Positions 1-57,520 of a stretch of 64,000 nucleotides of DNA are shown here, piece by piece. The first letter of the stretch is position 1. Every line of letters begins with the position of its first letter. Made by a program: the position numbers and the translations under genes. Origin of the DNA: Eledone cirrhosa. Taxonomy: Eukaryota. The notes beneath the pieces are model-generated. The model was not told where the DNA came from. It did no database searches and worked only from the letters and a program-made list of their open reading frames with translations. The stretch lies in NCBI GenBank assembly GCA_964016885.1, contig OZ024741.1, forward strand, positions 410,006,001-410,070,000, read 5' to 3'.

Positions 1-3000
1 TATGACCATCACCATCCTGTCCTAGTGATGACAAACAGCCTCATTACACTGTGTTTCAGATGACCATCACCATAACCACCCTGTCCTAGAGATGACAAAC
101 AGCCTCATTACACTATGTTTTATATGACCATCACCATCCTGTCCTAGTGATGACAAACAGCCTCATTACACTGTGTTTTAGATGACCATCACCATAACCA
201 CCCTGTCCTAGTGATGACAAACAGCCTCATTACACTATGTTTTATATGACCATCACCATCCTGTCCTAGTGATGACAAACAGCCTCATTACACTGTGTTT
301 CAGATGACCATCACCATAACCACCCTGTCCTAGAGATGACAAACAGCCTCATTACACTATGTTTTATATGACCATCACCATCCTGTCCTAGTGATGACAA
401 ACAGCCTCATTACACTGTGTTTTAGATGACCATCACCATAACCACCCTGTCCTAGTGATGACAAACAGCCTCATTACACTATGTTTTATATGACCATCAC
501 CATCCTGTCCTAGTGATGACAAACAGCCTCATTACACTGTGTTTTAGATGACCATCACCATAACCACCCTGTCCTAGTGATGACAAACAGCCTCATTACA
601 CTATGTTTTATATGACCATCACCATCCTGTCCTAGTGATGACAAACAGCCTCATTACACTGTGTTTTAGATGACCATCACCATAACCATCCTGTCCTAGT
701 GATGACAAACAGCCTCATTACACTATGTTTTAGTTGACCATCACCATCACCCTCACCATCCTGTCCTAGTGATGACAAACAGCCTCATTACACTATGTTT
801 TAGATGACCATCACCATAACCATCCTGTCCTTGTGATGACAAACAGCCTCATTACACTGTGTTTTAGATGACATCACCATCCTGTCCCAGTGGTGAGAAA
901 CAGCCTCATTACGCTGTTTTAGATGACCATCACCATCACCATCACCATCCTGTCCTAGTGATGACAAACAGCCTCATTACGCTATGTTTTAGATGACCAT
1001 CACCATCACCATCCTGTCCTAGTGTTGACAAACAGCCTCATCACGCTATGTTTTAGATGACCACCACCATCACCATCCTGTCATAGTGGTGACAAACAGC
1101 CTAATTATGCTATGTTTTAGATGACCATCAACATCACCATCCTGTCCTAGTGATGACAAACAGCCTCATTACACTGTGTTTTAGATGACCATCACCATCA
1201 GTATCCTGTCCTAGTGATGACAAACAGCCTCATCACTCTGTGTTTTAGATGACTATCACCATCACCATCACCATCCTGTCCTAATGGTGAGAAACTGCCT
1301 CATTACTCTGTGTTTTAGATGACCATCACCATCACCATCCTGTCCTACTGATGACAAACAGCCTCATTACTCTATGTTTTAGATGACCATCACCATCCTG
1401 TCCTAGTGATGACCTTCAGCCTCATTATACTGTTTTAGATGACCATGACCATGACCATCACCATCCTGTCATAGTGGTGACAAACAGCCTCATTACGCTG
1501 TGGTTTAGATAACCATCACCATCACCATCCTCTCCTATTGATGACAAACAGTCTCATTACGCTATGTTTTAGATAACCATCACCATCACCATCCTGTCCT
1601 AGTGGTGACAAACAGCCTCATTACACTGTGATTTAGATGACCATCACCATCACCATCTCCATCCTGTCCTATTGATGACAAACAGCCTCATTACTCTATG
1701 TTTTAGATGACCATCACCATCCTGTCCTAGTGATGACAAACAGCCTCATTACGCTATGTTTTAGATGACCATCACCATCCTGTTCTAGTGATAACAAACA
1801 GCCTCATTACGCTATGTGTTAGATGACCATCACCATCACCATCTCCATCCTGTCCTATTGATGACAAACAGCCTCATAACACTATGTTTTAGATCACCAT
1901 CACCATCCTGTCCTAGTGATGACAATCAGTCTCATTACACTATGTTTTAGATGACCTTCACCATCACCATCCTGTCCTAGTGATGACAAACAGCCTCATA
2001 ACACTATGTTTTAGATGACCATCACCATCACCATCCTGTCCTAGTGATAACAAACAGCCTCATTACACTATTTTTTAGATGACCATCACCATCCTGTCCT
2101 AGTGATGATAAACAGCCTCATTGCAATATGTTTTAGATGACCATCACCATCACCATCACCATCCTGTCCTAGTGATGACAAAAAGCCTCATTACGCTATG
2201 TTTTAGAAGACCATCACCATCACCACCCTGTCCTAGTGATGACAAACAGCCTCATTGCAATATGTTTTAGATGACCATCACCATCACCATCCTGTCCTAG
2301 TGGTGACAAACAGCCTCAGCGTGCTATGTTTTAGATGACCATCACCATCACCATCCTGTCCTAGTGATGACAAACAGCCTCATCACTCTGTGTTTTAGAT
2401 GACCATCACCATCACCATCCTGTCCTAATGGTGACAAACAGCCTCATTACACTATGTTTTAGATGACGATCACCACCACCATCCTGTCCTAGTGATGACA
2501 AACAGCCTCATTACGCTATGTTTTAGATGACCATCACCATCCTGTCCTAGTGGTGACAAACAGCCTCATTACACTGTTTTAGATGACCATCACCATCCTG
2601 TCCTAATGATGACAAACAGCTTCATTACATTGTGTTTTAGATGACCATCACCATCACCATCCTGTCCTAGTGATGACAAACAGCATATTTACTCTATTTT
2701 TTAGATGACCATCACCATCACCATCACCACCCTGTCCTAGTGGTGACAAACAGCCTCATTACACTGTGTTTTAGATAACCATCACCATCACCATCACCAT
2801 CCTGTCCTAGTGATGACAAACAGCCTCATTACTCTCTGTTTTAGATAACCATCACCATCACCATTGTGTCCTAGTGGTGACAAATAGCCTCATTACTCTG
2901 TGTTTTAGATGACCATCACCATCACCATCCTGTCATAGTGATGACAAACAGCCTCATTACACTATGTTTTAGATGACCATGACCATGACCATCACCATCC

Positions 3001-6000
3001 TGTCCTAGTGATGACAAACAGCCTCATAACACTATGTTTTAGATGACCATCACCATCACCATCCTGCTCTAGTGATGACAAACAGCCTCATTACACTATA
3101 TTTTAGATGACCTTCACCATCACCATCCTGTCCTAGTGATGACAAACCGCCTCATAACACTATGTTTTAGATGACCATCACCATCACCATCACCATCCTG
3201 TCCTAATGATGACAAACAGCCTCATTACTCTATGTTTTAGATGACCATCACCATCAGTATCCTGTCCTAGTGATGACAAACAGCCTCATAACACTATGTT
3301 TTAGATGACCATCACCATCACCATCACCATCCTGCTCTAGTGATGACAAACAGCCTCATTACACTATGTTTTAGATGACCATCACCATAACCATCACCAT
3401 CCTGTCCTAGTGGTGACAAACAGCCTCATTACACTATGTTTTAGATGACCATCACCATCACCATCCTGTCCTAGTAGTGACAAACAGCCTCATGACGCTA
3501 TGTTTTAGATGACCTTCACCATCCTGTCCTAATGATGACAAACAGCTTCATTACATTGTGTTTTAGATGACCATCACCATCCTGTCCTAGTGGTGACAAA
3601 CAGCATCTTTACTCTATTTTTTAGATGACCATCACCATCCTGTCCTAGTGATGACAAACAGCCTCATTACTCTGTGTTTTAGATAACCATCACAATCACC
3701 ATTGTCTCCTAGTGGTGACAAATAGCCTCATTACTCTGTGTTTTAGATGACCATCACCATCACCATCCTTTCATAGTGATGACAAACAGCCTCATTACAC
3801 TATGTTTTAGATGACCATGACCATCACCATCCTGTCCTAGTGATGACAAACAGCCTCATTACGCTATGTTTTAGATCACCATCACCATCACCATCCTGTC
3901 CTAGTGATGACAAACAGCCTCTTTACTCTATGTTTTAGATGACCATCACCATCACAATCACCATCCTGTCCTAGGTATGACAAATAGCCTCATAACTCTA
4001 TGTTTTAGATGACCATCACCATCACCATCACCATCCTGTCCAAATGAGGATAAAAAGCCTCATTACACTGTGTTTTAGATGACCATCACCATCCTGTCCT
4101 AGTTGTGACAAACAGCCTCATTACTCTGTTTTAGATGACCATCACCATCCTGTCCTAGTAGTAACAAACAGCCTCATGATGCTATGCTTTAGATGACCTT
4201 CACCATCCTGTCCTAATGATGACAAACAGCCTCATTACATTGTGTTTTAGATGACCTTCACCATCACCATCCTGTCCTAGTGATGACAAACAGCCTCATA
4301 ACACTATGTTTTAGATGACCATCACCATCACCATCCTGTCCTAGTGATAACAAACATCCTCATTACACTATTTTTTAGATGACCATCACCATCACCATCC
4401 TGTCCTAGTGATGACAAACAGCCTCATTACGCTATGTTTTAGATGACCATCACCATCAACATCACCATCCTGTCCTAGTGATGACAAACAGCCTCATTAC
4501 GCTATGTTTTAGATGACCATCACCATCAACATCACCATCCTGTCCTAGTGATGACAAACAGTCTCATTTCACTGTGTTTTAGATGACCATCACCATCTTG
4601 TCCTAGTGATGACAAACAGCCTTATTTCACTGTGTTTTAGATGACCATCATCATCACCATCCTGTCCTAGTGATGACAAAAAGCCTCATTACGCTATGTT
4701 TTAGAAGACTATCACCATCCTGTCCTAGTGATGACAAACAGCCTCATTGCACTATGTTTTAGATGACCATCACCATCACCATCACCATCCTGTCCTAGTG
4801 GTGACAAACAGCCTCAGCGCGCTATGTTTTAGATGACCATCACCATCCTGTCCTAGTGATGACAAACAGCCTCAGCGTGCTATGTTTTAGATGACCATCA
4901 CCATCACCATCCTGTCCTAGTGATGACAAACAGCCTCATAACACTATGTTTTAGATGACCATGACCATCACCATCCTGTCCTAGTGATGACAAACAGCCT
5001 CATCGTGCTATGTTTTAGATGACCATCACCATCACCATCCTGTCCTAGTGATTACAAACAGCCTCATCACTCTGTGTTTTAGATGACCATCACCATCACC
5101 ATCACCATCCTGTCCTAGTGATGACAAACAGCCTCATTACGCTATGTTTTAGATGACCATCACCATAACCATCACCATCCTGTCCTAGTGATGACCATCA
5201 CCATCCTGTCCTAGTGGTGACAAACAGCCTAATTACACTATGTTTTAGATCACCATCACCATCCTGTCCTAGTAGTGACAAACAGCCTCATGACGCTATG
5301 TTTTAGATGACCATCACCATCAACATCACCATCCTGTCCTAGTGATGACAAACTGCCTCATTACTCTGTTTTAGATGACCATCACCATCAGCATCCTGTC
5401 CTAGTGATGACAAACAGCCTCATAACACTATGTTTTAGATGACCATCACCATCACCATCACCATCCTGTCCAAATGATGATAAAAAACCTCATTACACTG
5501 TGTTTTAGATGACCATCACCATCCTGTCCTAGTTGTGACAAACAGCCTCATTACACTATGTTTTAGATGACCATCACCATCACCATCCTGTCCTAGTAGT
5601 AACAAACAGCCTCCTGATGCTATGCTTTAGATGACCTTCACCATCCTGTCCTAATGATGACAAACAGCCTCATTACATTGTGTTTTAGATGACCATCACC
5701 ATCACCATCCTGTCCTAGTGGTGACAAACAGCCTCTTTACTCTATGTTTTAGATGACCATCACCATCACCATCACGTCCTAGTGTTGACAAACAGTCTCA
5801 TTACTCTGTGTTTTAGATGACCATCAGCATCCTGTCCTAGTGATGACAAACAGCCTCATTACTCCGTGTTTTAGATAACCATCACCATCACCATCGTGTC
5901 CTAATGGTGACAAATAGCCTCATTACTCTGTGTTTTAGATGACCATCACCATCACCATCCTGTCATAGTGATGACAAACAGCCTCATTACACTATGTTTT

Positions 6001-8530
6001 AGATGACCATCACCATCCTGTCCTAGTGATGACAAACAGCCTCATAACACTATGTTTTAGATGACCATCACCATCACCATCCTGCTCTAGTGATGACAAA
6101 CAGCCTCATTACGCTGTGTTTTAGATGACCATCACCATCCTGTCCTAGTGATGACAAACAGCCTCATTCCTCTGTGTTTTAGATGACCATCACCATCACC
6201 ATCCTGTCCTAGTGATGACAAACAGTCTCATTTCACTGTGTTTTAGATGACCATCACCATCTTGTCCTAGTGATGACAAACAGCCTCATTTCACTGTGTT
6301 TTAGATGACCATGACCATCACCATCCTGTCCTAGTGATGACAAACAGCCTCATTGCACTATGTTTTAGATGACCATCACCATCCTGTCCTAGTGGTGACA
6401 AACAGCCTCAGCGCGCTATGTTTTAGATGACCATGACCATGACCATCACCATCACCATCCTGTCCTAGTGGTGACAAACAGCCTCATTACGCCATGTTTT
6501 AGATGACCATCACCATCCTGTCCTAGTGATGACAAACAGCCTCATAACACTCTGTTTTAGATGACCATCACCATCACCATCCTGTCCTAGTGGTGACAAA
6601 CAGCCTCATCGTGCTATGTTTTAGATGACCATCACCATCCTGTCCTAGTGATTACAAACAGTCTCATCACTCTGTGTTTTAGATGACCATCACCATCACC
6701 TTCACCATCCTGTCCTAATGGTGACAAACAGCCTCATTACACTATGTTTTAGATGACCATCACCATCACCATCCTGTCCTAGTGATGACAAACAGCCTCA
6801 TTACGCTATGTTTTAGATGACCATCACCATAACCATCACCATCCTGTCCTAGTGATGACAAACAGCCTCATTACGCTATGTTTTAGATGACCATCACCAT
6901 CACCATCACCATCACCATCCTGTCCTAGTGGTGACAAACAGCCTCATGACGCTATGTTTTAGATGACCTTCACCATCCTGTCCTAATGATGACAAACAGC
7001 CTCATTACATTGTGTTTTAGATGACCATCACCATCCTGTCCTAGTGATGACAAACAGCATCTTTACTCTATTTTTTAGATGACCATCACCATCACCATCA
7101 CCATCCTGTCCTAGTGGTGACAAACAACCTCATTACACTGTGTTTTAGATAACCATCACCATCACCATCCTGTCCTAGTGATGACAAACACCCTCATTAC
7201 TCTGTGTTTTAGATAACCATCACCATCACCATTGTGTCCTAGTGGTGACAAATAGCCTCATTACTCTGTGTTTTTGATGACCATCACCATCCTGTCATAG
7301 TGATGACAAACAGCCTCATTACGCTATGTTTTAGATGACCATCACCATCACCATCACCATCCTGTCCTAGTGATGACAAACAGCCTTATTACGCTATGTT
7401 TTAGATCACCATCAACATCACCATCCTGTCCTAGTGATGACAAACAGCCTCTTTACTCTGTTTTAGATGACCATCACCATCACAATCACTATCCTGTCCT
7501 AGGTATGACAAACAGCCTCATAACACTATGTTTTAGATGACCATCACCATCACCATCACCATCCTGTCCAAATGATGATAAAAAGCCTCATTACACTGTG
7601 TTTTAGATGACCATCACCATCCTGTCCTAGTTATGACAAACAGCATCTTTACTCTATGTTTTAGATGACCATCACCATCACCATCCTGTCCTAGTGGTGA
7701 CAAACAGCCTCATTACACTGTGTTTTAAATAACCATCACCATCACCATCCTGTCCTAGTGATGACAAACAGCCTCATTACACTATGTTTTAGATGACCAT
7801 CACCATCACCATCACCACCCTGTCCTAGAGATGACAAACAGCCTCATTACGCTATGTTTTAGATGACCATCACCATCACCACCCTGTCCTAGTGGTGACA
7901 AACAGCCTCATTACACTATGTTTTAGATGACCATCACCATCACCATCCTGTCCTAGTAGTAACAAACAGCCTCATGATGCTATGTTTTAGATGACCATCA
8001 CCATCCTGTCCTAGTGGTGACAAACAGCCTCTTTACTCTATGTTTTAGATGACCATCACCATCACCATCACCATCCTGTCCTAGTGATGACAAACAGCCT
8101 CATTACTCTGTGTTTTAGATAACCATCACCATCACCATCACCATCCTGTCCTAGTGGTGACAAATAGCCTCATTACTCTGTGTTTTATATGAGCATCACC
8201 ATCACTATCCTGTCCTAGTGGTGACAAACAGCCTCATTACTCTGTATTTTAGATGACCATCACCATCACCATCCTGTCCTATTGATGACAAACAGCCTCA
8301 TTACACTGTGTTTTAGATGACCATCACCATCCTGTCATAGTGATGACAAACAGCCTCATTACACTGTGTTTTAGATGACCATCACCATCACCATCCTGTC
8401 CTAGTGTTGACAAACAGCCTCATTCCTGTGTGTTTTAGATGACCATCACCATCACCACCCTGTCCTAGTGATGACAAACAGCCTCATTACACTATGTTTT
8501 AGATGACCATCACCATCACTATCACCATCT
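1..8530. repeat. Minisatellite/satellite array, 58-bp core monomer plus variable CACCAT hexamers (58/64/70 bp), roughly 135 copies, runs off the left edge of the window
   Basis: The monomer GATGACCATCACCATCCTGTCCTAGTGATGACAAACAGCCTCATTACACTATGTTTTA repeats continuously, and length varies mainly in steps of 6 bp. The copy number is an estimate from length. Confidence 0.97.
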
Positions 8531-9395: not shown

Positions 9396-10287
9396 CAGGG
9401 TGTGGACGATATTTGTTCGCAATTTTCAATTGCTTATTTTATGCAATTTTTGTTTACTTCCGTTGTCACTCTTGTCTTCATAAAAACAGTGACTATATTT
9501 CCATTATTTATTTTCAGAATAATTGATTATGAATAATTTTGAACCTCCAAATTTGTGGAAGAGACACAGAGTTCTTCTTGGAATCCGCACCGGGAGGACA
9601 AATAAGACCAGAAGATCAACTCCCAGAACAACAGGTGGCTCGCTGTCTCATCCAAAGACGTGCCCAGATTCATGCAGACAAAATTTCCAGCGACAACATT
9701 GGTCTTAGGTGTCGTCAGCAGTTAAGGTGACGTCATGCCACCTCACTTCTTCCCTGAGGGCCTCGAGCTGAACACCGATGGCTACATCCACGTTCTGAGC
9801 GAGGTAGTAAAGCCCTGGATCGACCAGGTAACTGCAGGTAGGCCGTACGTGTGGCAGCAAGACTCAGCGCCCTGCCATACCAGCCAAAAGATCCAAGCCT
9901 GGCTGTCAGAGAACTTCATCGACCACACTTCACCTGACATCTGGTATCCCAGCTCGCCTGACTGCAACCCCCTCGACTTCTTTGTGTGGGGCGAAGTGGA
10001 ACGAGACACCAACAGATCTAGCTGCAATACGAAAGACGATCTGAAGGCCAAGATCACAAGTGCCTTTAGGGGCCTAAGTCGGGGGACAGTGACGAAGGCT
10101 TGTAGCCGGTTCCGAGGCCGCATTGAGGCTGTCATCAAAGCCAATGGCGGTTTTATCGAGTGATATCGAAAGAACAAGTCATGAAGACAAACTGACCCAA
10201 GTTTGATAAATATATCTTAAAAAATTAAACTACTGTCTTATTTTTTCCTGGACAGTAATCTTGCCAACAAATATCGTCCGCACCCTG
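9396..10287 (+). mobile_element. Tc1/mariner-superfamily DD37D (maT-type) transposon, internally deleted, non-autonomous
   Basis: 27-bp TIRs CAGGGTG(T/C)GGACGATATTTGTT(C/G)GCAA match 25/27, with TA on both flanks. The transposase N-terminus (9529-) is fused near 9606 to DQKINSQNNRW..., followed by an in-frame stop. ORF 9735-10163 carries QQDSAPCH...SPDCNPLD with 37 residues between the two Asp. Confidence 0.93.
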
Positions 10288-10322
10288 TAGATATATATAT
10301 ACACACCTATATATATATACAC

Positions 10323-10363
<41 letters not shown>

Positions 10364-10427
10364 CATGTAGGAATATATAAGTATGTCTACTATGTATGTA
10401 TATATATATATATGAATATATATATAT

Positions 10428-10643
10428 GTAAAAGGGAAACAGAAATAACAACACAATCGGTACAGTATATGGAAGGGATATATTAGGTTAATGCTTGATA
10501 TAGCAGGAAGAGGGTCTTAACGTTTCGGACGCTAGTCCTTCATCAGAAGAAAGAATGAGAAATAAGATAGATTGAGGGGACGGGTGGGATGGAATTGGAA
10601 AAAATGTCTTTTGATAAAAATAACAAGTCCATTCATGTTGACA
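10428..10643 (-). mobile_element. ~215-bp Penelope-like pLTR unit carrying a minimal hammerhead (copy 1)
   Basis: A close inverted copy lies at 14676-14890. The unit abuts a TA microsatellite and contains the minimal hammerhead motif typical of Penelope-like elements. Confidence 0.7.
10515..10550 (-). ncRNA. Minimal type I hammerhead ribozyme (Penelope type)
   Basis: The minus strand reads UCUU-CUGAUGA-A-GGAC-UAGC-GUCC-GAAAC-GUU-AAGA. Stem I is UCUU/AAGA, stem II is perfect, and stem III is a palindromic loopless AC/GU. Predicted cleavage is after GUU (10519/10518). Confidence 0.85.
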
Positions 10644-10772
10644 TCTCTTGCAAAACTGGTTGTGCTGGCGTTTTGTGTATAATTTATTTTATGAAGTAAC
10701 AGAGTCAGAAACTCGCGTTAGTCCCTGTAATTCATGAGTTCAAAGGATAAAGAATCCTGGGCTCTTCAAATA

Positions 10773-10791
10773 TAATATATAGAAGAAAACA

Positions 10792-10827
<36 letters not shown>

Positions 10828-11167
10828 TGTGTTACAGGGAATACCATCAGCGTATAGAACCTATAAACTAAGAAAGGTGAGGTAGATACTTTATAATTAA
10901 AAATATAAATTAGAATGAAACAACCCACCTTTATAACACACGTACAAACTCGGGGAGATTGTTTCACCAGAAATCAGTGTTAGAATCGTATTCCCCCAGG
11001 TTCATCAGAGTGTGTTAGGTGTATACATTTTACAGGTCCAAGAGAACTTAAAATAACTGACTTACAACACGTGGGAGAAAGAAATGCGTGTACAAGACAG
11101 TACGTTAGTGGTATCTCCTGTAACCAGATAAACACACACTCTCTCTCGTGTTTTCTTTTCTATATTA
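10773..11167. mobile_element. ~395-bp fold-back/MITE-like element with imperfect terminal inverted repeats enclosing a hammerhead ribozyme
   Basis: The left arm 10773-10854 (TAATATATAGAAGAAAACACACG(AG)nTGTGTGTTACAGGGAATACCATCAGCGTA) is the approximate reverse complement of the right arm 11101-11167. The flanks are TA-rich. Confidence 0.7.
10926..11021 (-). ncRNA. Full-length type I hammerhead ribozyme
   Basis: The minus strand reads CACC-UAACACAC-U-CUGAUGA-ACC...GGU-GAAA-CAAUCUC-CCC-GAGUUU-GUA-C-GUGUGUUA-UAAA-GGUG. The core is intact. Stem III has 7/8 pairs, stem I has 8 bp plus a UAAA bulge plus 4 bp, and stem II is closed by ACC/GGU. Predicted cleavage is after GUA (10943/10942). The first stem I pair is a U.C mismatch. 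Confidence 0.82.
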
Positions 11168-11195
11168 CACACACATATATAAATATATATATATA

Positions 11196-14057
11196 CATCA
11201 TCATCATCATCATCGTTTAACATCTATCTTCCACGCTAGCATGGGTTTAGACAGGAATTGTCCCACTTGAGGCAAGATTGGTCGTCTCACTCGTATGGGA
11301 CTGTCTGGCAGGTTTTCTACGACTGGATGCCCTTCCTAACACCAACCACATTTACAGTGGGCTGGGAGGTTTTTACCGTGTTACCTATATGGCCACATTA
11401 CAGCGTGGACTGTGTGTTTTTTTGTCGTGACACCTACATGACCTCATTTATTTAGGACTGGATGTTGTGGTACCAACATATCTTTACAGAGAAAGGGGTG
11501 GTGTTGGTGGGGGTGAGGGAGTTGGGGGTGTATATTTGGTTAAGAGGTACCTACTGACTGTAGGTTTCACTTTGTACTTAGGCAAGGCGGGTCTTCTGTA
11601 TTACTGCGTAGCACCAAAGATATCGGTCCAGTGACATTGTCTTGGAGAGGTGTAGGTGTGTAAAGTCGGAATTTATCAAGTTGTCCCAGGTTTTTCTGGG
11701 TCTGCCTACTCCGTAACTACCATCAATTTTGATCGCCCTGCACTTTTTTATACAGCTGTCGTCTTTCATGCGCGTCATGTGACCATACCAACGTAGTCTT
11801 CTCTCGAGTAAACAGCATCTGATCCCTCTTATTCCTAATTTCTCGCTTAGTTCATTTATGCTTTGCTGTTCACATATATTACGATGACACATCCAACGGA
11901 GCATGCCAGCTTCGTTCCTCTCCAGTCTGCTCAGATCCTCTGCACACAATGCCCATGTCTCACTGCCATGTAACATTGCTGTTCGTATGCAGGCATCATA
12001 CAGTCTGCTTTTCATTTTTAGAGAGAAACCTTTAGCGGCCAATAGTGGTATAAGCTCTCTGAACTTTTTCCATCCCATTCTAACTCTAGCTACTGTACTT
12101 TCAGAGCACCCTCCACCACTGCTGATTTTGTCACCCAGGTAACGGAAGGTGTCCACTATTTCTATAGAACCATCTGGGCAATGGAAGGACCTAGTATCCT
12201 GTGGGCACTTGCTACTTATTGCACCTGAGCATTGGCCACATATAAAATCTATGTTCTTAGTTAGCTTACCTGTGATCCCACTACATCTTTTATGCACCCA
12301 TACTTTGCATTTGGGACATAAAATGGAGTTTCTGCCTACTCCTTTCCTACACACTGAGCATGGCCATTTCCCAGAGGGAACCGGTGCCCTATTTTCCTTC
12401 CTACAAACTAGAACTTTAGTCTTAGACAAGTTAACTTTAAGGCCTTTTGATTCTAGGCCATGCTTCCATGTTTGGAATTTCTCCTCTAGTTCAGCCATTG
12501 ATTCAGCTATGAACGTTAGATCATCTGCGTATAGGAGTTCCCATGGGCTTGAACTCCTCTGTTATAGCCTGAAGGGCAATAATAAATAAGAGGGGGCTAA
12601 GGACAGAGCCCTGATGAACACCAACTTTTACGCTAAATTCTTCACAATATTCGTTGTTAATTCTAACCTTGCTGACTGTTTCTTTATACATGGCTTGTAT
12701 AGCTCTCACAAGCCATTCATCTACACCTAGTTTTCTAAGAGCCTACCAGATAATAGAGCGGGGGAGTCCGTCAAAGGCTTTCTCCAAGTCAACAAAAGCT
12801 AAGTATAGGGGTTTACTTTTAGCTAGGTACTTCCCTGTAGTTGCCGTACAAGGAAAAGAGCGTCCGTGGTACTTTTACCTTACACAAACCTAAACTGCAT
12901 TTCATCTAGATCAATTCGCTCTCTGATTAGTTGCGCTATAACTCTTTCTGTGACCTTCATGACCTGGTAAATTAATTTAATGCCTCTATAGTTTCCCCTA
13001 TCTAGGGCATCTCCTTTACCCTTGTAGCAGTTAATGATGTTGCTGCTACACCAGTTATTTGGTATGACCTCATTCTGTATTACTTGGGTGACCATAGTGT
13101 GTCCCACCATTCCAGATGCCTTCAACATCTCAGCAACTATCTCCAAAGGCCCAGCTGCCTTGCCTGTCTTCATATCTTTGATTGTCTTACTTATTATACT
13201 ACCTTTACCTTGCACCGCTGGTCCTTCTATTGGATCGATTTGGGGCAGACTATCTTTTTCCCATTTATTCTCCTCATTTAGTGACACTTCCAAGCTACCT
13301 TCTTATCAGTGTCAGTGAGGGAAAGTACACCGTTATCATTACGGACACACTTCTCCCTGACAATATCACGGTTTTCCTTGACACATTGTCTAGCAATCCT
13401 GAACACCTTAGGTTTTTGGTCCTTGCATTGTAGAACATGGTTGAACTTTCTTTCCTCTGCTTCACTTCTTGCAAAGTACATTTGTCTCCTAGCTTCCCTC
13501 CTGGTCACTTGATAGTCTTCTCTACTTCCCCCATCCAGCCATACTTTCCAAGCTTGCTTTTTGGCCTTGATTGACTCCTCCACCTTACTGTTCCACCATC
13601 AAGTTACTCTCCTCCTACCTATAGGTCTGTTCCAGCCACAGACTTCATCTGTCGCCTTCAGCAGGTTAACTTTCAAGAATTCCCACTGTTCCTCTATATT
13701 GTACATCCCTAATTGTTCTTCCTTACTGTCAAAAGCATCAAGTAATATGCTTTTAAATTTGTTACTGGTTGTGGGGGTCTTTCAACTTCCATATTTTTCT
13801 CCTGAGGGTAGTCCTCCTCCGTTGTCAAGTACGCCTCATCCTGACTATGAGGTAGCTAACTATGAGGCTATGTTGAGAGGTGCATTCTTCACGGGGGAGG
13901 GATTTAGTGTTTACAACAGACACTCTGTCACGTCTTCTGGTAAGGATATAATCTACCTGGCTGGTGTGTTCCCCTGATCTATAGGTGATCAAGTGATTGT
14001 CTCGTTTTTTGAAGTTAGTGTTACAGATAGTTAGGTTATTAGCTTCACAGAATTCCA
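11196..14057 (-). mobile_element. RTE-clade LINE, 5'-truncated and frameshifted (copy A)
   Basis: ORF fragments 13825-14058, 13278-13583, 12880-13293, 12521-12709 and 11578-12498 are collinear with the 24314-26860 ORF. The 3' UTR and (GAT)n tail are at 11196-11213. Confidence 0.95.
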
Positions 14058-14899: not shown

Positions 14900-16835
14900 G
14901 CAGTAATGGTGGGATACATTATGGTCACCCTATAGTAAACCAAGTAATACAGAATGAGGTCATACCAAATAACTGGCATAGTAGCATCATCATTAACTGC
15001 TACAAGGGTAAAGGGGATGCTCTAGATAGGGGAAACTATAGAGGCATTAAGTTAGTAGACCAGGTCATGAAGGTCACAGAAAGAGTTATAGCGCAACTAA
15101 TCAGAGAGCGAATTGATCTAGATGAAATGCAGTTTGGGTTTGTGTCAGGTAAAAGTACCACAGATGCTCTTTTCCTTGTATGACAACTACAGGAGAAGTA
15201 CCTAGCTAAAAGTAAACCCCTCTACTTAGCTTTTGTAGACCTGGAGAATGCTTTTGACAGAGTCCCCCGCTCCATTATCTGGTGGGCTCTTAGAAAACTA
15301 GGTGTTGATGAATGGCTTGTGAGAGCCATACAAGCTATGTATAAAGAAACAGTCAGTAAGGTTAGAATTAACAATGAATATTGTGAAGAATTTAGTGTAA
15401 AAGTTGGCATTCATCAAGGCTCTGTCCTTAGCCCCCTCTTATTTAATATTGCCCTTCAGGCTATAAGAGAGGAGTTCAAGACCGGCTGCCCATGGGAACT
15501 CTTATACACAGATGATCTAACGCTCATAGCTGAATCAATGGCTGAACTAGAGAAGAAATTCCAAACATGGAAGCATGGCTTCGAATCAAAAGGCCTTAAA
15601 GTTAACTTGTCTAAGACTAAAGTTCTAGTTTGTAGAAAGGAAAATAGGGCACAGGTTCCCTCAGGGAAATGGCCATGCTCAGTGTGTAGGAAAGGAGTAG
15701 GCAGAAATTCCATTTTATGTCCTAAATGCAAAGTATGGTTTCATAAAAAATGTAGTGGCATCACAGGGAAACTATCTAAGAACGTAGACTTTATATGTGG
15801 CTGGTGCTCAGGTGCAATAAGTAGCAAGTGTCCACAGGATACAAGCTCCTTCTATTGCACAGATGGTTCTATAGAAATAGTGGACACTTTCCGTTACCTG
15901 GGTGACAAAATCAGCAGTGGTGGAGGGTGTTCTGAAAGTACAGTAGTTAGAGTGAGAACGGGATGGTAAAAGTTCAGGGAGTTTATACCGCTGTTGGCCA
16001 CTAAAGGTTTCTCTCTAAAAATGAAAGGCAGGCTGTATGATGCCTGCATACGAACAGCAATGTTACATGGCAGTGAGACATGGGCATTACGTGCAGAGGA
16101 CCTGCATAGACTGGAGAGGAACGAAGCTTGCATACTCTGTTGGATGTGTAATAGTAATATACGTGAACAGCAAAGCATAAATGAACTAAGTGAGAAATTA
16201 GGAATAAGAGGGATCAGATGCTGTTTACTTGAGAGAAGACTACGTTGGTATGGTCACGAGATGCGCATGAAAGACGACAGCTGCATAAAAAAAGGTAGGG
16301 CGATCAAAATTGATGGAAGTTACGGAGTAGGCAGACCCAGAAAAACCTGGGATGATCTGATAAATTCCGACCTTACACACTTACACCTCTCTAAGACAAT
16401 GTCTCTGAACCGAGATCTTTGACGCTACGCAGTAATACAGAAGACCCGTCTTGCCTATGTACAAAGCAAAACCTACAGTCAGCACCTCTTAACCAAATAT
16501 ACACCCCAATCCACTACCCGTACCCTATCCTCCCACTCCCACCAACAGCACGAGAAAATGAGATCGAGATCGTGTAGGTGACACGACAAAAAAAACACAC
16601 AGTCCACACTGAAATGTGGCCGTGTAGGTAACACGGAAAAAGTTCCCAGTTCCACACTGTAAATGTGGTTGGTGTTAGGAAGGGCATCCAGCCGTATAAA
16701 ACCTGCCAGATAGTCCTATATGAGTGAGACACGGTCACCCGACCACCCTTGCCTCAAGTGGGACAACTCCCATCTAACCCATGCTAGTGTGGAAAATGGA
16801 CATTAAACGAAGATGATGATGATGATGATGATGAT
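14900..16835 (+). mobile_element. RTE-clade LINE, 5'-truncated, with nonsense mutations (copy B)
   Basis: RT ORFs 15319-15969 (YTDD) and 15994-16422, a 3' UTR like copy A, and a (GAT)n tail. Confidence 0.95.
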
Positions 16836-16848
16836 ACATATACATATA

Positions 16849-17209: not shown

Positions 17210-17548
17210 GAACTTAATTATAGGAAAGTTAGTAATATTACTAAAAAATTCTAAATATTTATTATTTCAAAACATATTGAAAATTATGGACGGCATCTTT
17301 CATAAGATAGGTTAGTGAAAGGGTTAACATTTTAGAATGTAAACCAGCCATATCCAGCCAGAATTATCTCACCTCTTTCTGTTCAAACCTCCATAACTGG
17401 CCACTCATACTTATGTTATGGTATTGTTCTCAAAATAAATAATATTAAAATCTCATAAATTTGATAATATGAGATAATTATGTGAGATAAATACTTTACC
17501 TCAAAAATAAATAGTAAATATAGAGTAATATAAATGATGAAGGGTTAA
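17210..17548. mobile_element. Two adjacent degenerate piggyBac-like MITE remnants joined at TTAA
   Basis: The ends read ...GTGAAAGGG|TTAA (17324-17327) and ...GATGAAGGG|TTAA (17545-17548), and the second unit starts TTAA|CATTTTAGAAT. TTAA+CCCTT termini are piggyBac-like. Confidence 0.6.
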
Positions 17549-19435
17549 AAAACACAGACAGTGTCTTACATTAGAAATATGGTATTGAAAGGGTTAAAGA
17601 ACATAGACAGTGTCTTACATTAGAAATATGGTAATGAAAGGGTTAAACAACATAGACAGTGTCTTACATTAGAAATATGGTAATGAAAGGGTTAAACAAC
17701 ATAGACAGTGTCTTACATTAGAAATATGGTAATGAAAGGGTTAAACAACATACAGAGTGTCTTTAGAAATATGGTGTCTTACATTATAAATATGGTAATG
17801 AAAGGGTTAAACAACATAGACAGTGTCTTTCATTAGAAATATGGTAATGAAAGGGTTAAACAACATAGACAGTGTCTTTCATTAGAAATATGGTAATGAA
17901 AGGGTTAAAGTAATAGACAGTGTCTTACATTAGAATTATGGTAAAAAGAGTTAAACAACATAGACAGTGTCTTACTTTAGAATTATGGTAAAAGGGTTAA
18001 AGACATAGACAGTGTCTTACATTAGAATTATGGTAAAAGGGTTAAACAACATAGACAGTGTCTTTCATTAGAAACATGGTAATGGAAGAATAAAACAACA
18101 TAGACAGTGTCTTACATTAGAATTATGGTAAAAGGGTTAAACAACATAGACAGCATCTTTCATTAGAAATATAGTAATAAAAGGGTGAAAGACATAGACA
18201 GTGTCTTACATTAGAATTATGGTAAAAGGGTTAAACAACATAGAGAGTGTCTTTCATTAGAAATATGGTAATGGAAGAGTTAAACAACATAGACAGTGTC
18301 TTACATCAGAAATATGGTAATGAAAGGGTTAAACAACATAGACTGTGTCTTACATTAGAATTATGGTAAAAGGGTTAAACAACATAGACAGCGTCTTTCA
18401 TTAGAAATATAGTAATAAAAGGGTTAAACAACATACACAGTGTCTTTAGAAATATGGTAATGAAAGGGTTAAACAACATAGACAGTGTCTTACATTAGAT
18501 ATATGGTAATGAAAGGATTAAACAACATAGACAGTGTCTTTCATTAAAAATATGGTAATGAAAGGGTTAAACAACATAGACAGTGTCTTACATTAGAAAG
18601 ATGGTAATGAAAGGGTTAAACAACATAGACAGTGTCTTACATTAGAAATATGGTAATGGAAAGGTTAAACAACATAGACAGTGTCTTACATTAGAAATAT
18701 GGTAATGAAAGGGTTAAACAACATAGACAGTGTCTTACATTAGATATATGGTAATGAAAGGATTAAACAACATAGACAGTGTCTTACATTAGAAATATGG
18801 TAATGAAAGGGTTAAACAACATAGACAGTGTCTTACATTAGAAATATGGTAATGAAAGGGTTAAACAACATAGACAGTGTCTTACATTAGAAATATGGTA
18901 ATGAAAGGATTAAACAACATAGACAGTGTCTTACATTAGAAATATGGTAATGAAAGGGTTAAACAACATAGACAGTGTCTTACATTAGAAATATGGTAAT
19001 GGAAAGGTTAAACAACATAGACAGTGTCTTACATTAGAAATATGGTAATGAAAGGGTTAAACAACATAGACAGTGTCTTACATTAGAAATATGGTAATGG
19101 AAGGGTTAAACAACATAGACAGTGTCTTACATCAGAAATATGGTAATGAAAGGGTTAAACAACATAGACTGTGTCTTACATTAGAATTATGGTAAAAGGA
19201 TTAAACAACATAGACAGCGTCTTTCATTAGAAATATGGTAATGAAAGTGGTAAACAACATAGACAGTGTCTTTCATTAGAAATATGGTAATGAATGGGTT
19301 AAAGAATATATACAGTGTCTTACATTAGAAATATGGTAATGAAAAGGTTAAACAACATAGACAGTGTCTCACATTAGAAATATGGTAATGAAAGGGTTAA
19401 ACAACATAGACAGTGTCTTTCATTAGATATATGGT

Positions 19436-19640
19436 AATAATAATAATAATAATTGTTTCTATTTTTAGGCACAAGGCCAGCAATAACCCAGTTGATTACT
19501 GGTACTTTATTTTATCGACCCAGTAAGGATGAAAGGCAAAGTTAACCTAGCCGGGATTTGAACTCAGATCATAAAGGGACGTAACTCTATGCCTCAAAGC
19601 ATGGTGTCCGACTCTCTACCGATACTGCCAATTCACCGTG
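19436..19640 (-). mobile_element. tRNA-derived SINE with (TTA)n tail
   Basis: The minus strand has an A-box-like TGGCAGTATCGG and a B-box GAGTTCAAATCC. The central GCCTTTCATCCTTACTGGGTCGATAAAATAAAGTACCAG resembles the MetaSINE conserved domain (from memory). It ends in an (ATT)n tail. Confidence 0.75.
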
Positions 19641-19641
19641 C

Positions 19642-20288
19642 TAATAATAATAATGAAAATATTGTGTACAGTGCTCAGATGCACTAAACTCATCAAAAGT
19701 GTATGTATTGTACATAGGGTAATGTTCAAACATCAGGAAAATGAACAGTGCATGAGTCATGATATACATGTGTGTGCATGTGTATGGAAGGGGGACATCA
19801 GGTGTAGCTTTCTCGAATTTCGAGAAGCATGAGTGTCTTAAAGCATGCAGTGTCTCGACAGCTAACAACTGACCCAGGCAGTTTGTTCCATGCTTCAGAA
19901 ACTCTAAGTGTGAAAAAATGTTTACGAAAGTCATGGGAGCTGTGCTGTTTTCTGTCCACGTGTCTTAGACACATGGAGATCAAAAAGGTGCTCAGGGTCG
20001 TTGTGGCGAGATGGTTAATAACTTTGTGGGTGTTTACCATGTCCATTGCCAGGCGTTGGAGGTTTAATGAATCCATGCCCAGGTCAATGTTCTGAGCAAG
20101 ACTGGGGTTCCAGGCTGATGATGCGAATTCCAAGTGTGGTTGTACCATAGCTGTATACAGCTTTAAATAGATGGCTGGAGAGCGGCTAACAAAGGTCTTG
20201 CTGAGTGATGCCAAGACGCCCTCGGCCTTCTTGACAATCTTAGAGACATGCTTTGTCCAACGCAAACCGCTGCTGACAGTAATGCCCA
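19642..20288 (-). mobile_element. CR1/L2-group LINE 3' fragment
   Basis: ORF 19798-20301 (LGITVSSGLRWTKHV...LYTAMVQPHLEFASSAWNP...RKHFFTLRVSEAWNKLP) is a typical CR1-group post-RT C-terminus. It is followed by a 3' UTR and an (ATT)n tail. Confidence 0.85.
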
Positions 20289-23173
20289 GTAAGGAAAGCA
20301 TTAAACAACATAGACAGTGTCTTTCATTGAAAATATGGTAATGAAAGGGTTAAACAACATAGACAGTGTCTTTAGCAATATGGAAATAAAGGGTAAACAA
20401 CATAGACAGTGTCTTACATTAGAAATATGGTAATGAAATGGTTAAACAACATAGACAGTATCTTTCATTGGAAATATGGAAATGAAAGGGTTAAACAACA
20501 TAGACAGTGTCTTACATTAGAAATATGGTAATGAAAAGGTTAAACAACATAGACAGTGTCTTACATTAGAAATGTGGTAATGAAAGGGTTAAACAACATA
20601 GAGAGTGTCTGAAGAAATATGGTAGTGAAAGGGTTAAGCAACATAGACAGTGTCTTACATTAGAAATATGGTAATGGAAGGGTTAAACAACATAGACAGT
20701 GTCTTACGTTAGAAATATGGTAATGAAAGGGTTAAACAACATAGACAGTGTCTTACATTAGAAATATGATAATGAAAGTGTTAAACAACATAGACAGTGT
20801 CTTACATTAGAAATATGGTAGTGAAAGGGTTAATCAACATAGACAGTGTCTTTAGCAATATGGTAATGAAGGGTTAATGACATAGACAGTGTCTTACATT
20901 AGAAATATGGTAGTGAAAGGGTTAAACAACATAGACAGTGTCTTTAGAAATATGGTAATGAAAAAGCTAAAGACTTAGACAGTGTCTTACATTAGAATTT
21001 TGGTAATAAAAGGGTTAAACATAGACAGTGTCTTACATTAGAAATATGGTAATTAAAGGGTTAAACAACATAGACAGTGTCTTCCATTAGAAATATGGTA
21101 ATGAAAGGGTTAAACAACATAGACAGTGTATTACATTAGAAATATGGTAATGAAAGGGTTAAACAAAATAGACAGTGTCTTACATTAGAAATATGGTAAT
21201 GAAAGGGTTAAACAATATAGACAGTGTCTTACATTAGAAATATGGTAATCAAAGGGTTAAACAACATAGAGTGTGTCTTTCATTAGAAATATGGAAATGA
21301 AAGGGTTAAACAACATAGAGTGTCTTACATTAGAAATATGGTAATTAAAGGGTTAAACAACATAGAGTGTGTCTTACATTAGAAATATAGTAATGAAAGG
21401 GTTAAACAACATAGACAGTGTCTTACATTAGAAATATAGTAATGAAAGTGTTAAAGAAAATAGACAGTGTCTTACATTAGAAATATGGCAATGAAAGGGT
21501 TAAGCAACATAGACAGTGTCTTACATTAGAAATATGGTAATGAAAGGGTTAAACAACATAGAGGGTGTCTTTAGAAATATGGTAGTGAAAGGGTTAAGCA
21601 ACATAGACAGTGTTTTACATTAGAAATATGGCAATGAAAAGGTTAAACAACATAGACAGTGTCTTACATTAGAAATATGGTAATGAAAGGGTTAAAAAAC
21701 ATAGACAGTGTTTGTCATTAGAAATATGGCATTGAATGGGTTAAACAACATAGACAGTGTTTTTCATTAGATATATGGTAATGAAAGGGTTAAACAACAG
21801 AGACAGTGTCTTACATTAGAAATATGGCAATGAATGGGTTAAACAACATAGACAGACTCTTACATTAGAAATATGGTAATGAAGGGGTTAAACAACATAG
21901 ACAGTGTCTTACATTAGAAATATGGTAATGAAAGTGTTAAACAACATAGACAGTGTTTGTCATTAGAAATATGGTAATGAAAGGGTTAAACAACATAGAC
22001 AGTGTGTTACATTAGAAATATGGTAATGAAAGGGTTAAACAACATAGACAGTGTCTTTAGAAATATAGTAATGAAATGGTTAAAGACATAGACAGTGTCT
22101 TACATTAGAAATATGGTAACGAAAGGGTTAAACAACATAGACAGTGTCCTACATTAGAAATATAGTAATGAAATGGTTAAAGACATAGACAGTGTCTTAC
22201 ATTTGAAATATGCTAATGTACGGGTTAAACAACATAACCTGTGTCTTTCATTAGCAATATGGTAATGAAAGAGTTAAAGAGATAGACAGTGTCTTTCATT
22301 AGAAATATGGTAATGAAAGAGTTAAAGAGATAGACAGTATCTTACATTAGAAATATGGTAATGAAAGGGTTAAACAACATAGGCAGTGTCTTACATTAGA
22401 AATATGGTAAAGAAAGGGTTAAACAACATAGACAGTGTCTTACATTTGAAATATGCTAATGTACGGGTTAAACAACATAACCTGTGTCTTTCATTAGCAA
22501 TATGGTAATGAAAGAGTTAAAGAGATAGACAGTGTCTTTCATTAGAAATATGGTAATGAAAGAGTTAAAGAGATAGACAGTATCTTACATTAGAAATATG
22601 GTAATGAAAGGGTTAAACAACATAGGCAGTGTCTTGCATTAGAAATATGGTAATGAAAGGGTTAAACAACATAGACAGTGTCTTTCACTAGAAATATGGT
22701 CATGAAAGGGTTAAAGACATAGACAGTGTCTTACATTTGAAATATGCTAATGAACGGGTTAAAGAACATAACCAGTGTCTTTCATTAGAAATATGGTAAT
22801 GAAAGGGTTAAACAACATAGACAGTGTCTTACATTAGAAATATGGTAATGAAAGGGTTAAACAACATAGACAGTGTCATACATTAGAAATATGGTAATGA
22901 AAGGGTTAAACAACATAGACAGTGTCTTACATTAGAAATATGGTAATGAAAGGGTTAAACAACATAGACAGTGTCATACATTAGAAATATGGTAATGAAA
23001 GGGTTAAACAACATAGACAGTGTCTTACATTAGAAATATGGTAATGAAAGGGTTAAACAACATAGACAGTGTCTTACATTAGAAATATGGTAATGAAAGG
23101 GTTAAACAACAGAGACAGTGTCTTTCATTAGAAATATGTTAATGAAAGTGTTAAACAACATAGACAGTGTCTT

Positions 23174-26100
23174 CATCATCATCATCATCATCAGGTTTAG
23201 CGTCCGTGTTCCACGCTTGCATGGGTTTGGACGGGGGTTTTCCCACTTGAGGCAAGAGTGGTTGTCTTGCTCGCATAGGACTGTCTGGCGGGTTTTCTAC
23301 AGTTGGATGCCCTTCCTAACACCAACCACATTTACAGTGTGGGGCTGGGATGTTTTTACTGTGTTGCCTACACGGCCACATTACAGCGTGGACTGTCTGG
23401 CGGGTTTTCTACAGCTGGATGCCCTTCCTAACACCAACCACATTTACAGTGTGGGGCTGGGAGGTTTTTACCGTGTTGCCTACACGGCCACATTTACAGC
23501 GTGGACTGTGTGTTTTTTGTCGTGACACCTACACGATCTCATTTGTTTCGGCCTGGATGTTGTGTGACCAACATAACTTTACATTGAAAGGGGCGGTGTG
23601 GATGGGGTGGAGGTGGTGGGACGGGGGGGTGTTTTGATAGAGATGCCTACTGACTGTAGTAGGTTTTTACTTGTATTTAGGTAAGGCGGGTCTTCTCTAT
23701 TACTGAGTACCGCCAAAGGTCTCGGTCCAGTGACATTGTCTTGGAGAGGTGTAAGCGTGTGAGGTCGGAATTTATCAGCTCGTCCCATGTTTTTCTGGGT
23801 CTGCCTACTCCGTGGCTACCGTCTATCTTTATTGCCCTGCACTTTGTTATACAGCTGTCGTCTTTCATGCGCATCACGTGACCATACCAACGTAGCCTTC
23901 TCTCGAGTAAACAACATCTGATCCCTCTTATTTCTAATTTTTTCTTTAGTTCGTTTATGCTTTGCAGTTCACGTATATTACTATTGCACATCCAGCGGAG
24001 CATGCAAGCTTCGTTCCTCTCTAGTCTGCGTATATCCTCTGCACACAATGCCCAAGTCTCACTGCCATGCAGCATTGCTGTTCGTATGCAGGCATCGTAT
24101 AACCTGCCTTTCATTTTTAGGGAGAACCCTTTAGCGGCTAATAGTGGTATAAGCTCTCTGAACTTTTTCCATCCAGTTCTGACTTTAGCTACTGTACTTT
24201 CAGAGCACCCTCCCCCACTGCTGATTTTGTCACCCAGGTAACGGAAGCTGTCCACTATTTCTATAGAACCTTCTGCGCAGTTGAAGGAGCTAGTATTTTG
24301 TGGGCACTTGCTGCTACTTATTGCACCAGAGCATCGGCCATATGTAAAATCTGTTCTTAGTTAGCTTACCTGTGATCCCACTACATCTTTTATGCACCCA
24401 TACTTTGCATTTGGGACATAAAATGGAGTTTCTACCTACGCCTTTCCTACACACTGAGCATGGCCATTTCCCAGATGGGACCGCCTCCTTATTTTCTTTC
24501 CTACAAACTAGAACTTTAGTCTTAGCCAGGTTAATTTTAAGGCCTTTTGATTCTAGGCCGTGCTTCCATGTTTGGAATTTCTTCTCTAGTTCGGTCATTG
24601 ATTCAGCTATGAGCGTTAGATCATCTGCGTATAGGAGTTCCCATGGGCAGCCGGTCTTGAACTCCTCTGTTATAGCCTGAAGGGCAATAATAAATAGTAG
24701 GGGGCTAAGAACAGAGCCCTGATGGACACCAACTTTTACGCTAAACTCTTCACTATATTCGTTGTTAATTCTAACCTTACTGACTGTTTCTTTATACATG
24801 GCTTGTATAGCTCTCACAAGCCATTCATCAACACCTAGTTTTCTAAGAGACCACCAGATAATGGAACGGGGGACTCTGTCGAAGGCTTTCTCCAAGTCGA
24901 CGAAAGCTAAGTATAGGGGTTTACTTTTAGCTAGGTACTTCTCCTGTAGTTGTCGTACAATGAAAAGAGCGTCTGTGGTACTTTTGCCTGACACAAACCC
25001 GAACTGCATTTCATCTATATCAATTCTCTCTCTGATTAGTTGCGCTATTACTTTTTCCGTGACCTTCATGACCTGGTCGATTAATTTAATGCCTCTATAG
25101 TTACTCCTATCTAGGGCATCTCCTTTTCCCTTATAGCAGTTAACGATGATGCTGCTACGCCAGTCCTTCGGAACAACCCCATTCTGTACGACTTGGTTAA
25201 CTATCCGGGTGACCATGGTGTGTCCCACCGAACCAGATGCCTTCAGCATCTCAGCAACTATTTCCGAAGGACCAGCCGCCTTACCCGTCTTCATATCTTT
25301 GATTGCCTTGCTTATTGTACTACCCTGGACTAACACTGCTGGTCCCTCTATTGGGTCGATGTGGGGGAGACTGTCTTTCTCCCATTTGTTCTCCTCATTT
25401 AGAAGCCTTTCGTAGTGACACTTCCAAGCTACCTTCTTATCAGCGTCGGTGATGGCAAGTATGCCATCATCGTTAAGTACACACTTCTCCCCGACAATAT
25501 CACGGTTTTCCTTGACACATTGCCTGGCAATCCTGAACACCTCACGTTTTTGGTCCTCACGTTGTAGAACATGCTTGAACTTTCTTTCCTCTGCTTCCCT
25601 TCTTGCGAAGTACACTTGTCTCCTAGCTTCCCTCCTGGCCACTTGATAGTCTTCTCTACTTCCCCCATCCCGCCATACTTTCCAAGCCTGCTTTTTGGCC
25701 TTAATTGACTCCTCCACCTTACTGTTCCACCACCATGTTACTCTCCTCCTACCTACAGGCCTGCTCCAGCCACAGACTTCGTCTGCCGCCGTCAGCAGGT
25801 TTGCTCTCAGGAATTCCCACTGTTCCTCTATATTATACGACTCTAATTGCTCTTCCTTACTGTCGAAAGCGTCAAGTAATATGCTTTGAAATTTATTTCT
25901 GGCTATGGGGTCCTTTAGCTTCCATATTTTTCTCCTGAGGATAGTCCTCTTCCGCTGTCTAGTACGTCTCGTCCTGACTATGAGGTCGCTAATTATCAGT
26001 CTATGTTGGGAGGTGAATTCTTCATGGGGGAGGGATTTAGTGTTAACAACAGACACTCTGTCACGTCTTCTGGTAAGGATATAATCTACCTGGCTTGTGC

Positions 26101-29985: not shown

Positions 29986-31205
29986 ATAATAAATTCCAAA
30001 TTTGGAAGCAGGGACTAGAAAGAAAGAGTCTCAAAGTCAACATGACAAAGACTAAGGTCCTTGTAATTAGACGAGAAAACAGAACCCAGATCCACTCAGG
30101 GAAATGCCCTTGGTCCGTATGTAGGAAAGGTGTAGGTAGGAACTCCATTCTCTGCCCCAAATGCAAACAATGGGTACACAAGAGATGTAGCGGGATCTCA
30201 GGAAGCTTAATTAAGAATGTAGGCTTCACATGCAGCAGCTGTGCTGAGACAGCAAGCAGCAAACAGCCACAGGAAACAGGTACCACCAATCTCTGGGAGG
30301 GCCCTGTAGAGACAGTAGACAGCTTCTGCTACCTAGGTGACCGAATTAGCAGCGGAGGTGGGTGTTCAGAAAGTACAATAACTAGGGTAAGAACGGGATG
30401 GAAGAAGTTTAGGGAACTACTACCACTGCTAGCTGCAAAAGGCTTCTCCCTCAGAATGAAAGGCAGACTGTATGATGCGTGTATCCGAACAGCGATGTTG
30501 CATGGTAGTGAGACCTGGGCGCTGAAGGTGGAAGACTTACGTAGATTAGAGAGAAACGAAGCCTGCATGCTCCGATGGATGTGTAATAGTAATATACGCG
30601 AACGACAAAGCATAAATGAATTCAGAGAGAGATTGAGCATAAGAGGAATCAAATGCTGTGTGCAGGAGAGGCGGTTGCACTGGTATGGACATGTGATGCG
30701 TATGAAGAATGACAGCTGCATAAAAAGGTGCAGAGCACTAGAAGTTGATGGAAACCGCGGAGTGGGGAGACCCAAGATGACCTGGAATGAGGTGATAAAA
30801 GCCGACCTTACCCAATTACACCTCTCAAAGACAATGACACACGACGGTGACTTTTGGCGTCACGCAGTAATACAGAGTACCCGACCTCCCATGGGTAAAA
30901 GCTGAAGCATATAGACAATATGCCCCCACACCCCCCACCGTAAAGTGTTCGTGGAGGTGCCACGGCAAAAAAGCACCCAGCCCACACTGTAAAGTGGATG
31001 TGTAGGCGCCACGAAAAAGCACCCAGCACTCACTGTAAATGAGGTTGGTGTTAGGAAGGGCATCCAGCTGTAGAAATCAAGCCAGATCAGTTCCTGTATG
31101 TGCAAGACATGGTCACATGACCTGCCATTGACCATAACAGGACAACCTGTCTAACCCATGCTAGCGTGGAAGAACGGACGTAAAACGGTGATGATGATGA
31201 TGATG
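29986..31205 (+). mobile_element. RTE LINE, 5'-truncated, related subfamily (copy E), inserted in the 49-bp satellite
   Basis: RT C-terminal ORF from KFQIWKQGLE to the stop at 30905, then a 3' UTR and (GAT)n tail. The TSD AGACA is at 29981-29985 and 31206-31210. Confidence 0.94.

Positions 31206-57467: not shown

Positions 57468-57520
<53 letters not shown>

Follow-up and report, generated by a model that had tools for sequence, protein, structure and literature searches.

Non-LTR retrozymes of animals were described by Cervera and de la Pena (2020, PMC7229834; this and the other papers named below are cited from parts of their text), and it has been argued that retrozymes derive from Penelope elements as non-autonomous forms (Li, Clavereau and Pollet 2026, bioRxiv 10.64898/2026.07.22.740005), their mobilisation by Penelope being still treated as a hypothesis in the papers cited. 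Insertions of Penelope-like elements, as set out in the sections of Craig et al. (PMC8557442) on which we draw, show 5' truncation, partial tandems and an inverted 5'-truncated copy forming flanking inverted repeats, with a tail often present on one end. In the excerpts of Arkhipova et al. (PMC3846280), the tail is optionally carried by one of the inverted pLTRs. Moreover, at AT-rich DNA both strands are nicked and extended by a purified Penelope protein, which begins from two internal positions of an AC-rich stem-loop (Frangieh et al., PMC11167929). The retrozyme family presented below shows the full signature of a Penelope insertion.

Layout of the window locus

In the earlier note on the window (i.e., the whole stretch of 64,000 nucleotides that was analysed), the locus was presented as a 395-bp mini-element of MITE-like fold-back architecture around a single hammerhead ribozyme. 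Our analysis leads to another picture: the locus is very probably an old, truncated insertion of a non-coding, 526-nt non-LTR retrozyme, likely copied in trans by a Penelope-like RT-endonuclease, and its inverted ends likely come from this one insertion. The mirror-image ends are likely a by-product of insertion rather than termini of a novel type of element. The features of the locus are collected in Table 1.

Table 1. Features of the retrozyme locus and its surroundings (positions in the window), with the loci of the sister family
Feature	Position	Strand	Remarks
(TA)n microsatellite	10,291-10,427		likely left part of the original target
Neighbour outside the retrozyme: 5'-truncated 3' end of a younger Penelope-like element	10,424-10,690	-	minimal hammerhead, core 10,546-10,540
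Main copy, 5'-truncated monomer	10,691-11,102	-	covers positions 124-535 of the monomer (526 nt, circularly permuted)
Tail between end sites E1 and E2	10,691-10,770	-	last ~10 nt absent
Predicted AC-rich hairpin and end site E1 (~10,771)	10,771-10,845	-	stretch duplicated by the inverted arm
Type I hammerhead motif	10,936-11,015	-	predicted cut 10,943/10,942
Hammerhead stem I, two strands	11,015-11,009 and 10,942-10,936	-	
Hammerhead stem-loop II	11,001-10,966	-	
Hammerhead stem III	10,961-10,945	-	
Inverted piece	11,101-11,167	+	monomer stretch 385-453, with E1 at its outer end
(CA)/(TA)n tract outside the inverted arm	11,168-11,197		likely right part of the original target
Sister family loci	L190, L209-L238, L268 (G000:C2:364755088-364757879)		

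The main copy, which shows 84% identity with the family majority (the monomer numbering of the circularly permuted unit continues to 545), meets the inverted piece at a short ACCACT microhomology. The 395-bp boundaries proposed previously had to be abandoned: the unit continues about 82 bp further left, to position 10,691, and includes an 80-nt tail that had been overlooked. As for the inverted-repeat ends, the arms do pair (the 395-nt strand folds back with z -7.9, whereas the hammerhead region alone, with z -0.76, does not beat shuffles), but they are not terminal inverted repeats, because the same monomer stretch (385-453) occurs twice; what had been taken for the left arm belongs to the main copy and is the segment repeated in the inverted piece. 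The (CT)n tract within 10,771-10,845 is expanded in the window copy, and the right flank is composed of (TA)n and a LINE remnant.

In the window, a Penelope-like 3' end that has a high copy number and bears a minimal hammerhead occurs twice, at 10,424-10,690 (minus strand) and at about 14,772 (plus strand), with cores at 10,546 and 14,772; the former likely landed later, at the end of the retrozyme. Genome-wide, this 3' end gave 2466 candidates, the best copies of which are 95-96% identical, and one locus (L286) has a GIY-YIG frame upstream. Most of the window is filled by satellite arrays (1-8523, 17,540-23,173, 27,464-54,130, and 60,449-61,460) with periods of 64 bp, 49 bp (more than 600 units), and 37 bp. 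LINE remnants with RT and PHD-finger matches are localized at 11,176-13,111, 14,905-16,848, 23,680-26,902, 29,988-30,902, and 55,713-57,785, the first two being an inverted pair with 88% identity, and an 862-aa frame lies at 24,317-26,902. Furthermore, a 145-aa frame at 9726-10,163 (plus strand), for which no Pfam match was found, resembles the C-terminus of a Tc1/mariner transposase.

The retrozyme family and the ends of its copies

The genome (3.0 Gb) was searched with the hammerhead core, which gave 683 candidates, and among the 40 of them that were scored 45 matches were found. After removal of same-place repeats and one duplicate (L016), 61 non-redundant loci were kept, which were picked as best hits or pattern hits and are therefore not a random sample. 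These copies define a head-to-tail monomer of 526 nt with 38% GC. The supposition that the locus is a mobile element of retrozyme type belonging to a family held, and related subfamilies and a sister family were found in addition to the 61 copies. The non-coding character of the unit was likewise confirmed: the longest stop-free frame in the monomer has 57 aa, the monomer was not matched by tblastn with three Penelope-type proteins, and no RT + GIY-YIG reading frame, by which an autonomous Penelope-like element is recognized, was found between pLTRs.

The copies end at 445-459 (site E1, 22 copies) or at 527-545 (site E2, 27 copies), so that 49 of the 61 use two fixed sites about 90 nt apart, and 31 of the 36 copies ending exactly at 456 or 545 continue into (AT)n. 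Their 5' ends are scattered, which reflects variable 5' truncation. Around E1, a branched structure is predicted (21 copies, 15 pairs, 3 of them changed on both sides). No two-hammerhead dimer was found among these 61 closest copies, the longest of which spans 1.5 units.

An inverted piece, 25-484 nt long, is present in 37 of the 61 copies and absent in the other 24, and the junction pattern of the window copy has one occurrence genome-wide. Together with the extension of the unit beyond the left arm, this leaves hardly any credibility to a MITE-like DNA element with terminal inverted repeats which captured a hammerhead and moves as a 395-bp fold-back, in spite of the strong pairing of the arms that would speak for it. 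No fixed target duplication was seen either; the copies end within (TA)n tracts, in which a duplication would not be recognizable. A literature search, which covered few subscription papers, revealed no description of a MITE-like hammerhead element. Within the 37 inverted copies, four pairs share junction coordinates within 8 nt (the others do not), hence for a few fold-backs a common origin or a hot spot is conceivable. The architecture, put forward as a novelty, is the described structure of Penelope insertions, namely an inverted 5'-truncated flanking copy with a tail on one end (PMC8557442 and PMC3846280, in the sections cited). As the element belongs to a known class, the proposal of a novel fold-back system is not upheld; the family looks like an uncatalogued member of that class, and the hammerhead lists of PMC8557442, PMC7229834, and the tables of the 2026 preprint could already include it.

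The analysis of the outer ends was extended to 133 loci of three groups, among which there were 73 back-to-back pairs. In 48 of them both outer ends were assigned to E1 or E2 with a tolerance of 14 nt (6 nt for the sister family), and the other 25 have a damaged or interrupted end. Since L270 repeats L209, the 48 pairs represent 47 distinct fold-backs with both ends intact. In every one of them (18, 20, and 9 in the three groups) the two arms end at different sites, one being E1 and the other E2; a fold-back with both arms at one site did not occur (0/47). If E1 and E2 were used independently and equally, the chance of this outcome would be about 1e-14, a value calculated on a count that undetected duplicates would lower. 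The window copy obeys the rule, being scored as E2 though it is 10 nt short. The same one-arm-each arrangement was found in 10 of 10 resolvable inverted pairs (29 loci, judged by eye) of an autonomous element from the same genome, which was placed in the Hydra clade on the basis of the RWK, DKT, and CxCX5C motifs given in PMC8557442. This suggests that both strands are primed in a coupled fashion, one site each. Within the literature searched (few subscription papers), the end rule is stated nowhere as a rule; the one-sided tail was already known. The rule (47/47 and 10/10) turns a feature called optional in the papers into a testable constraint on inverted Penelope insertions.

A gapped core pattern gave 547 exact matches genome-wide, in contrast to 0 for the reversed control, and revealed several subfamilies. 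Two related subfamilies are 76-77% identical to the window family; among 44 loci of the related subfamilies, 21 exceed one monomer, 24 carry an inverted piece, and two-hammerhead dimers with a period of 542-543 bp are present (L184 and L191). A young sister family (225 near-identical motif matches, monomer of 457-472 nt, canonical stem II) forms arrays of up to seven units at 457 bp, and it is homologous to the window family outside the ribozyme (score -8 vs. -74 for shuffles, sd 8). This sister family would provide a naturally short substrate for work in vitro and is the best candidate for cleavage and circle tests.

These relatives bear on another explanation, namely that the unit is only the pLTR of an unsampled autonomous Penelope-like element and that the copies are its 5'-truncated stumps. 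The end anatomy equals that of autonomous elements, the neighbouring repeat at 10,424-10,690 is exactly such a stump, and frames of Penelope type are very numerous in the genome (10,596 and 94,049 first-look candidates, a small part of which was examined). However, every copy that is long enough (18 of the 61) runs across one and the same monomer junction back into its own 3' end, and the relatives form multimers, from dimers to 7-mers, in which no frame separates the hammerheads, so we regard this explanation as improbable and retain the retrozyme.

Several other loci were found during these searches. A 3.7-kb tandem at G000:C1:389.03 Mb, considered as an autonomous element, was rejected, being a duplicated composite with no Penelope frame between its repeats; this composite (G000:C1:389025000-389038000, L149 and L150) carries scrambled retrozyme pieces and is present in about four tandem repeats. 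A relaxed pattern with another stem I gave 15 matches, none of them tied to a Penelope frame: they comprised sister copies with mutations, another relative (L277), and unrelated motifs. Other repeat families also contain hammerhead-like motifs (L208, L266, L060, L056-L058, and L271-L282), some of which have a long loop II and a palindromic helix III.

The hammerhead motif and its predicted activity

The hammerhead core reported previously is indeed present on the minus strand (CUGAUGA at 11,008-11,002, GAAA at 10,965-10,962, GUA at 10,945-10,943), and so is the stem III of 8 positions, with one U.U. A hand-made descriptor of the core and three stems, the thresholds of which were set with the window hit already known, matched the window site as the sole site and none of 300 shuffles of the 9-kb region. 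The Rfam models, with which the earlier note proposed to check the motif, gave no hammerhead match in the window or at three related loci, probably due to the long loop II.

Two peculiarities of the motif are real, though not shared by the family. The UAAA bulge in the extended stem I (10,933-10,930) is not a family feature, because it is created by a 10-nt deletion of the window copy alone, and the first stem I pair, U.C in the window, is G-C in 39 of the 53 aligned copies of the close family, where stem I has 7 bp. The suspicion that the window copy is decayed is probably correct; the U.C mismatch and the UAAA bulge are private to this copy, which is predicted to misfold. In this copy the hammerhead fold (-15.4 kcal/mol) is 10.5 kcal/mol higher than the best fold (-25.9 kcal/mol), and the free fold differs from the full hammerhead in all 13 folded copies of the window lineage; the minimum-free-energy fold of a sister copy is the hammerhead. 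In the close family stem II is weak, its closing pair being A.C in 42 of 53 copies, and the window lineage is devoid of G10.1, which pairs with C11.1 in the sister family. The sister family has this pair and an extra A, both described as conserved in Penelope hammerheads (PMC4209133, in the part cited). The ribozyme of the window copy is predicted to be inactive or weak.

The full core is retained in 34 of the 53 aligned copies, and the conservation among the aligned close copies is 95% in core columns vs. 87% elsewhere. The covariation on which the earlier proposal was to be checked is missing inside the close family (64 of 500 shuffles were as high, and RNAalifold gave no consensus pairs) and appears only in a broader comparison: across 13 representatives of the subfamilies and the sister family, which were hand-picked and in which the covariation depends essentially on a single split, formed by 2 sister rows, it is seen for stems I and III: pairing holds in 95% of cells, both partners are altered in 3 of 15 pairs, and the score was reached by 0 of 500 shuffles. 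The 5' ends of copies do not cluster at the predicted cleavage site; one copy stops 9 nt short of it and others cross it. In 21 sequencing runs classed as RNA or presumed to be RNA, only 0.04 of the words of the stretch were present, and three of these runs placed no sequence on it, which speaks neither for nor against transcription.

It is quite possible, though less likely than not, that with the same retrozyme identity the hammerhead is vestigial in the window lineage, the templates being uncut linear multimers and a circle being unneeded. This would agree with the continued amplification of a lineage without a G pairing with C11.1, with the preference of its copies for other folds, and with copies that read through one or two hammerheads. 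In the papers cited in part, an anole element inserted in vitro without need for cleavage (PMC11167929) and eight of nine frog retrozymes did not cleave (2026 preprint). On the other hand, the subfamilies have preserved the core as well as stems I and III despite the diverged loop II, the core columns are more conserved than the rest, and axolotl retrozymes with a weak helix II do cleave and form circles (PMC7229834).

Probable mobilising partner, proposed mechanism, and comparison with known systems

The examination of 40 GIY-YIG loci, 25 Hydra loci, and other Hydra-type 3' ends yielded no autonomous element whose terminal repeat is homologous to the unit, so that homology within this sample points to no partner element. 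The Hydra end motif has a weak best match to the retrozyme E1 (score 35, with 3 of 200 nulls as high) and gave no signal for three related monomers. Nor is the partner assigned among Penelope-like elements, because Neptune-type families (labelled by the CX2-5CxxC linker given in PMC8557442) end in (TA)n here as well. Several such families (L051-L070) have long open frames, the longest with 1096 aa, and their 3' regions are rich in microsatellites and terminate in (TA)n; an abundant Hydra-clade element (L240-L269) has frames of 768-918 aa. Hydra elements have been reported to carry a hammerhead; a scan of the 3' end of the element from L240-L269 revealed no canonical one. A Hydra frame abutting the sister dimer in L190 is best read as a target, because 24 other loci of that Hydra family have no sister unit after the frame.

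According to the mechanism that we propose for the retrozyme, transcription of tandem copies would yield multimeric RNA, from which monomers would be released by the hammerhead and may then form circles. Nicks would be made in the two strands of a (TA)n tract by a Penelope-type protein, and cDNA would be primed from both nicked strands, at E1 on one and at E2 on the other. Joining of the two truncated cDNAs in opposite orientation, through a microhomology, would leave arms that are mirror images as far as E1, with the tail on a single side. A stronger version, for which we see somewhat less than an even chance, is that a single Penelope complex starts synthesis on each of the two nicked strands and is obliged to employ both start sites, one for each strand, which would place the tail on exactly one arm. 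As the non-coding family follows the same end rule as the autonomous Hydra element, this shared rule would be direct genomic evidence for retrozymes as Penelope cargo; the conserved branched end would be an enzyme-binding signal, and the hammerhead would be dispensable in the lineage that lost G10.1.

Like the animal non-LTR retrozymes of the cited sources, the family consists of non-coding, head-to-tail units of low GC content (38%) with one type I hammerhead each, ranges from monomers to multimers, and co-occurs with Penelope-like elements. It differs from them in the size of the monomer (526-543 nt vs. 150-450 in PMC7229834 and 51-972 in the 2026 preprint), in a helix III that comprises 6-8 positions, a loop II region some 30 nt long, and the absence of G10.1 in the window lineage, and, among the loci sampled, in having no homologous autonomous terminal repeat. 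Its copies are mostly dispersed, truncated, and equipped with inverted arms, which we did not find described for retrozymes (in the cited part of PMC7229834 the word 'inverted' occurs 0 times).

With respect to the hammerhead, the extra nucleotide after A9, clear in the sister family, is shared with known Penelope hammerheads, for which opposite-strand pairs 100-700 bp apart were already reported. Animal Penelope hammerheads lack a stable helix III and a large helix III was reported in fungal and protist elements; the window family is not of the minimal type.

With endonuclease-bearing Penelope-like elements (PMC8557442, PMC3846280, and PMC11167929, in the parts cited) the family shares 5' truncation, partial tandems, an inverted 5'-truncated copy, two end sites with a tail, (TA)n targets, and an AC-rich hairpin near the end site, whereas it has no ORF and its tail is about 90 nt long in comparison with 30-40 nt. 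To Hydra-clade elements the retrozyme unit has no clear sequence homology, but it shares with them insertion into (TA)n (PMC8557442), and the Hydra family of this genome has two ends, a similar E1 motif, and the one-arm-each rule. Finally, the tail described in the cited sections of the Penelope papers as optional or often one-ended is here present on exactly one arm in all 47 resolvable fold-backs.
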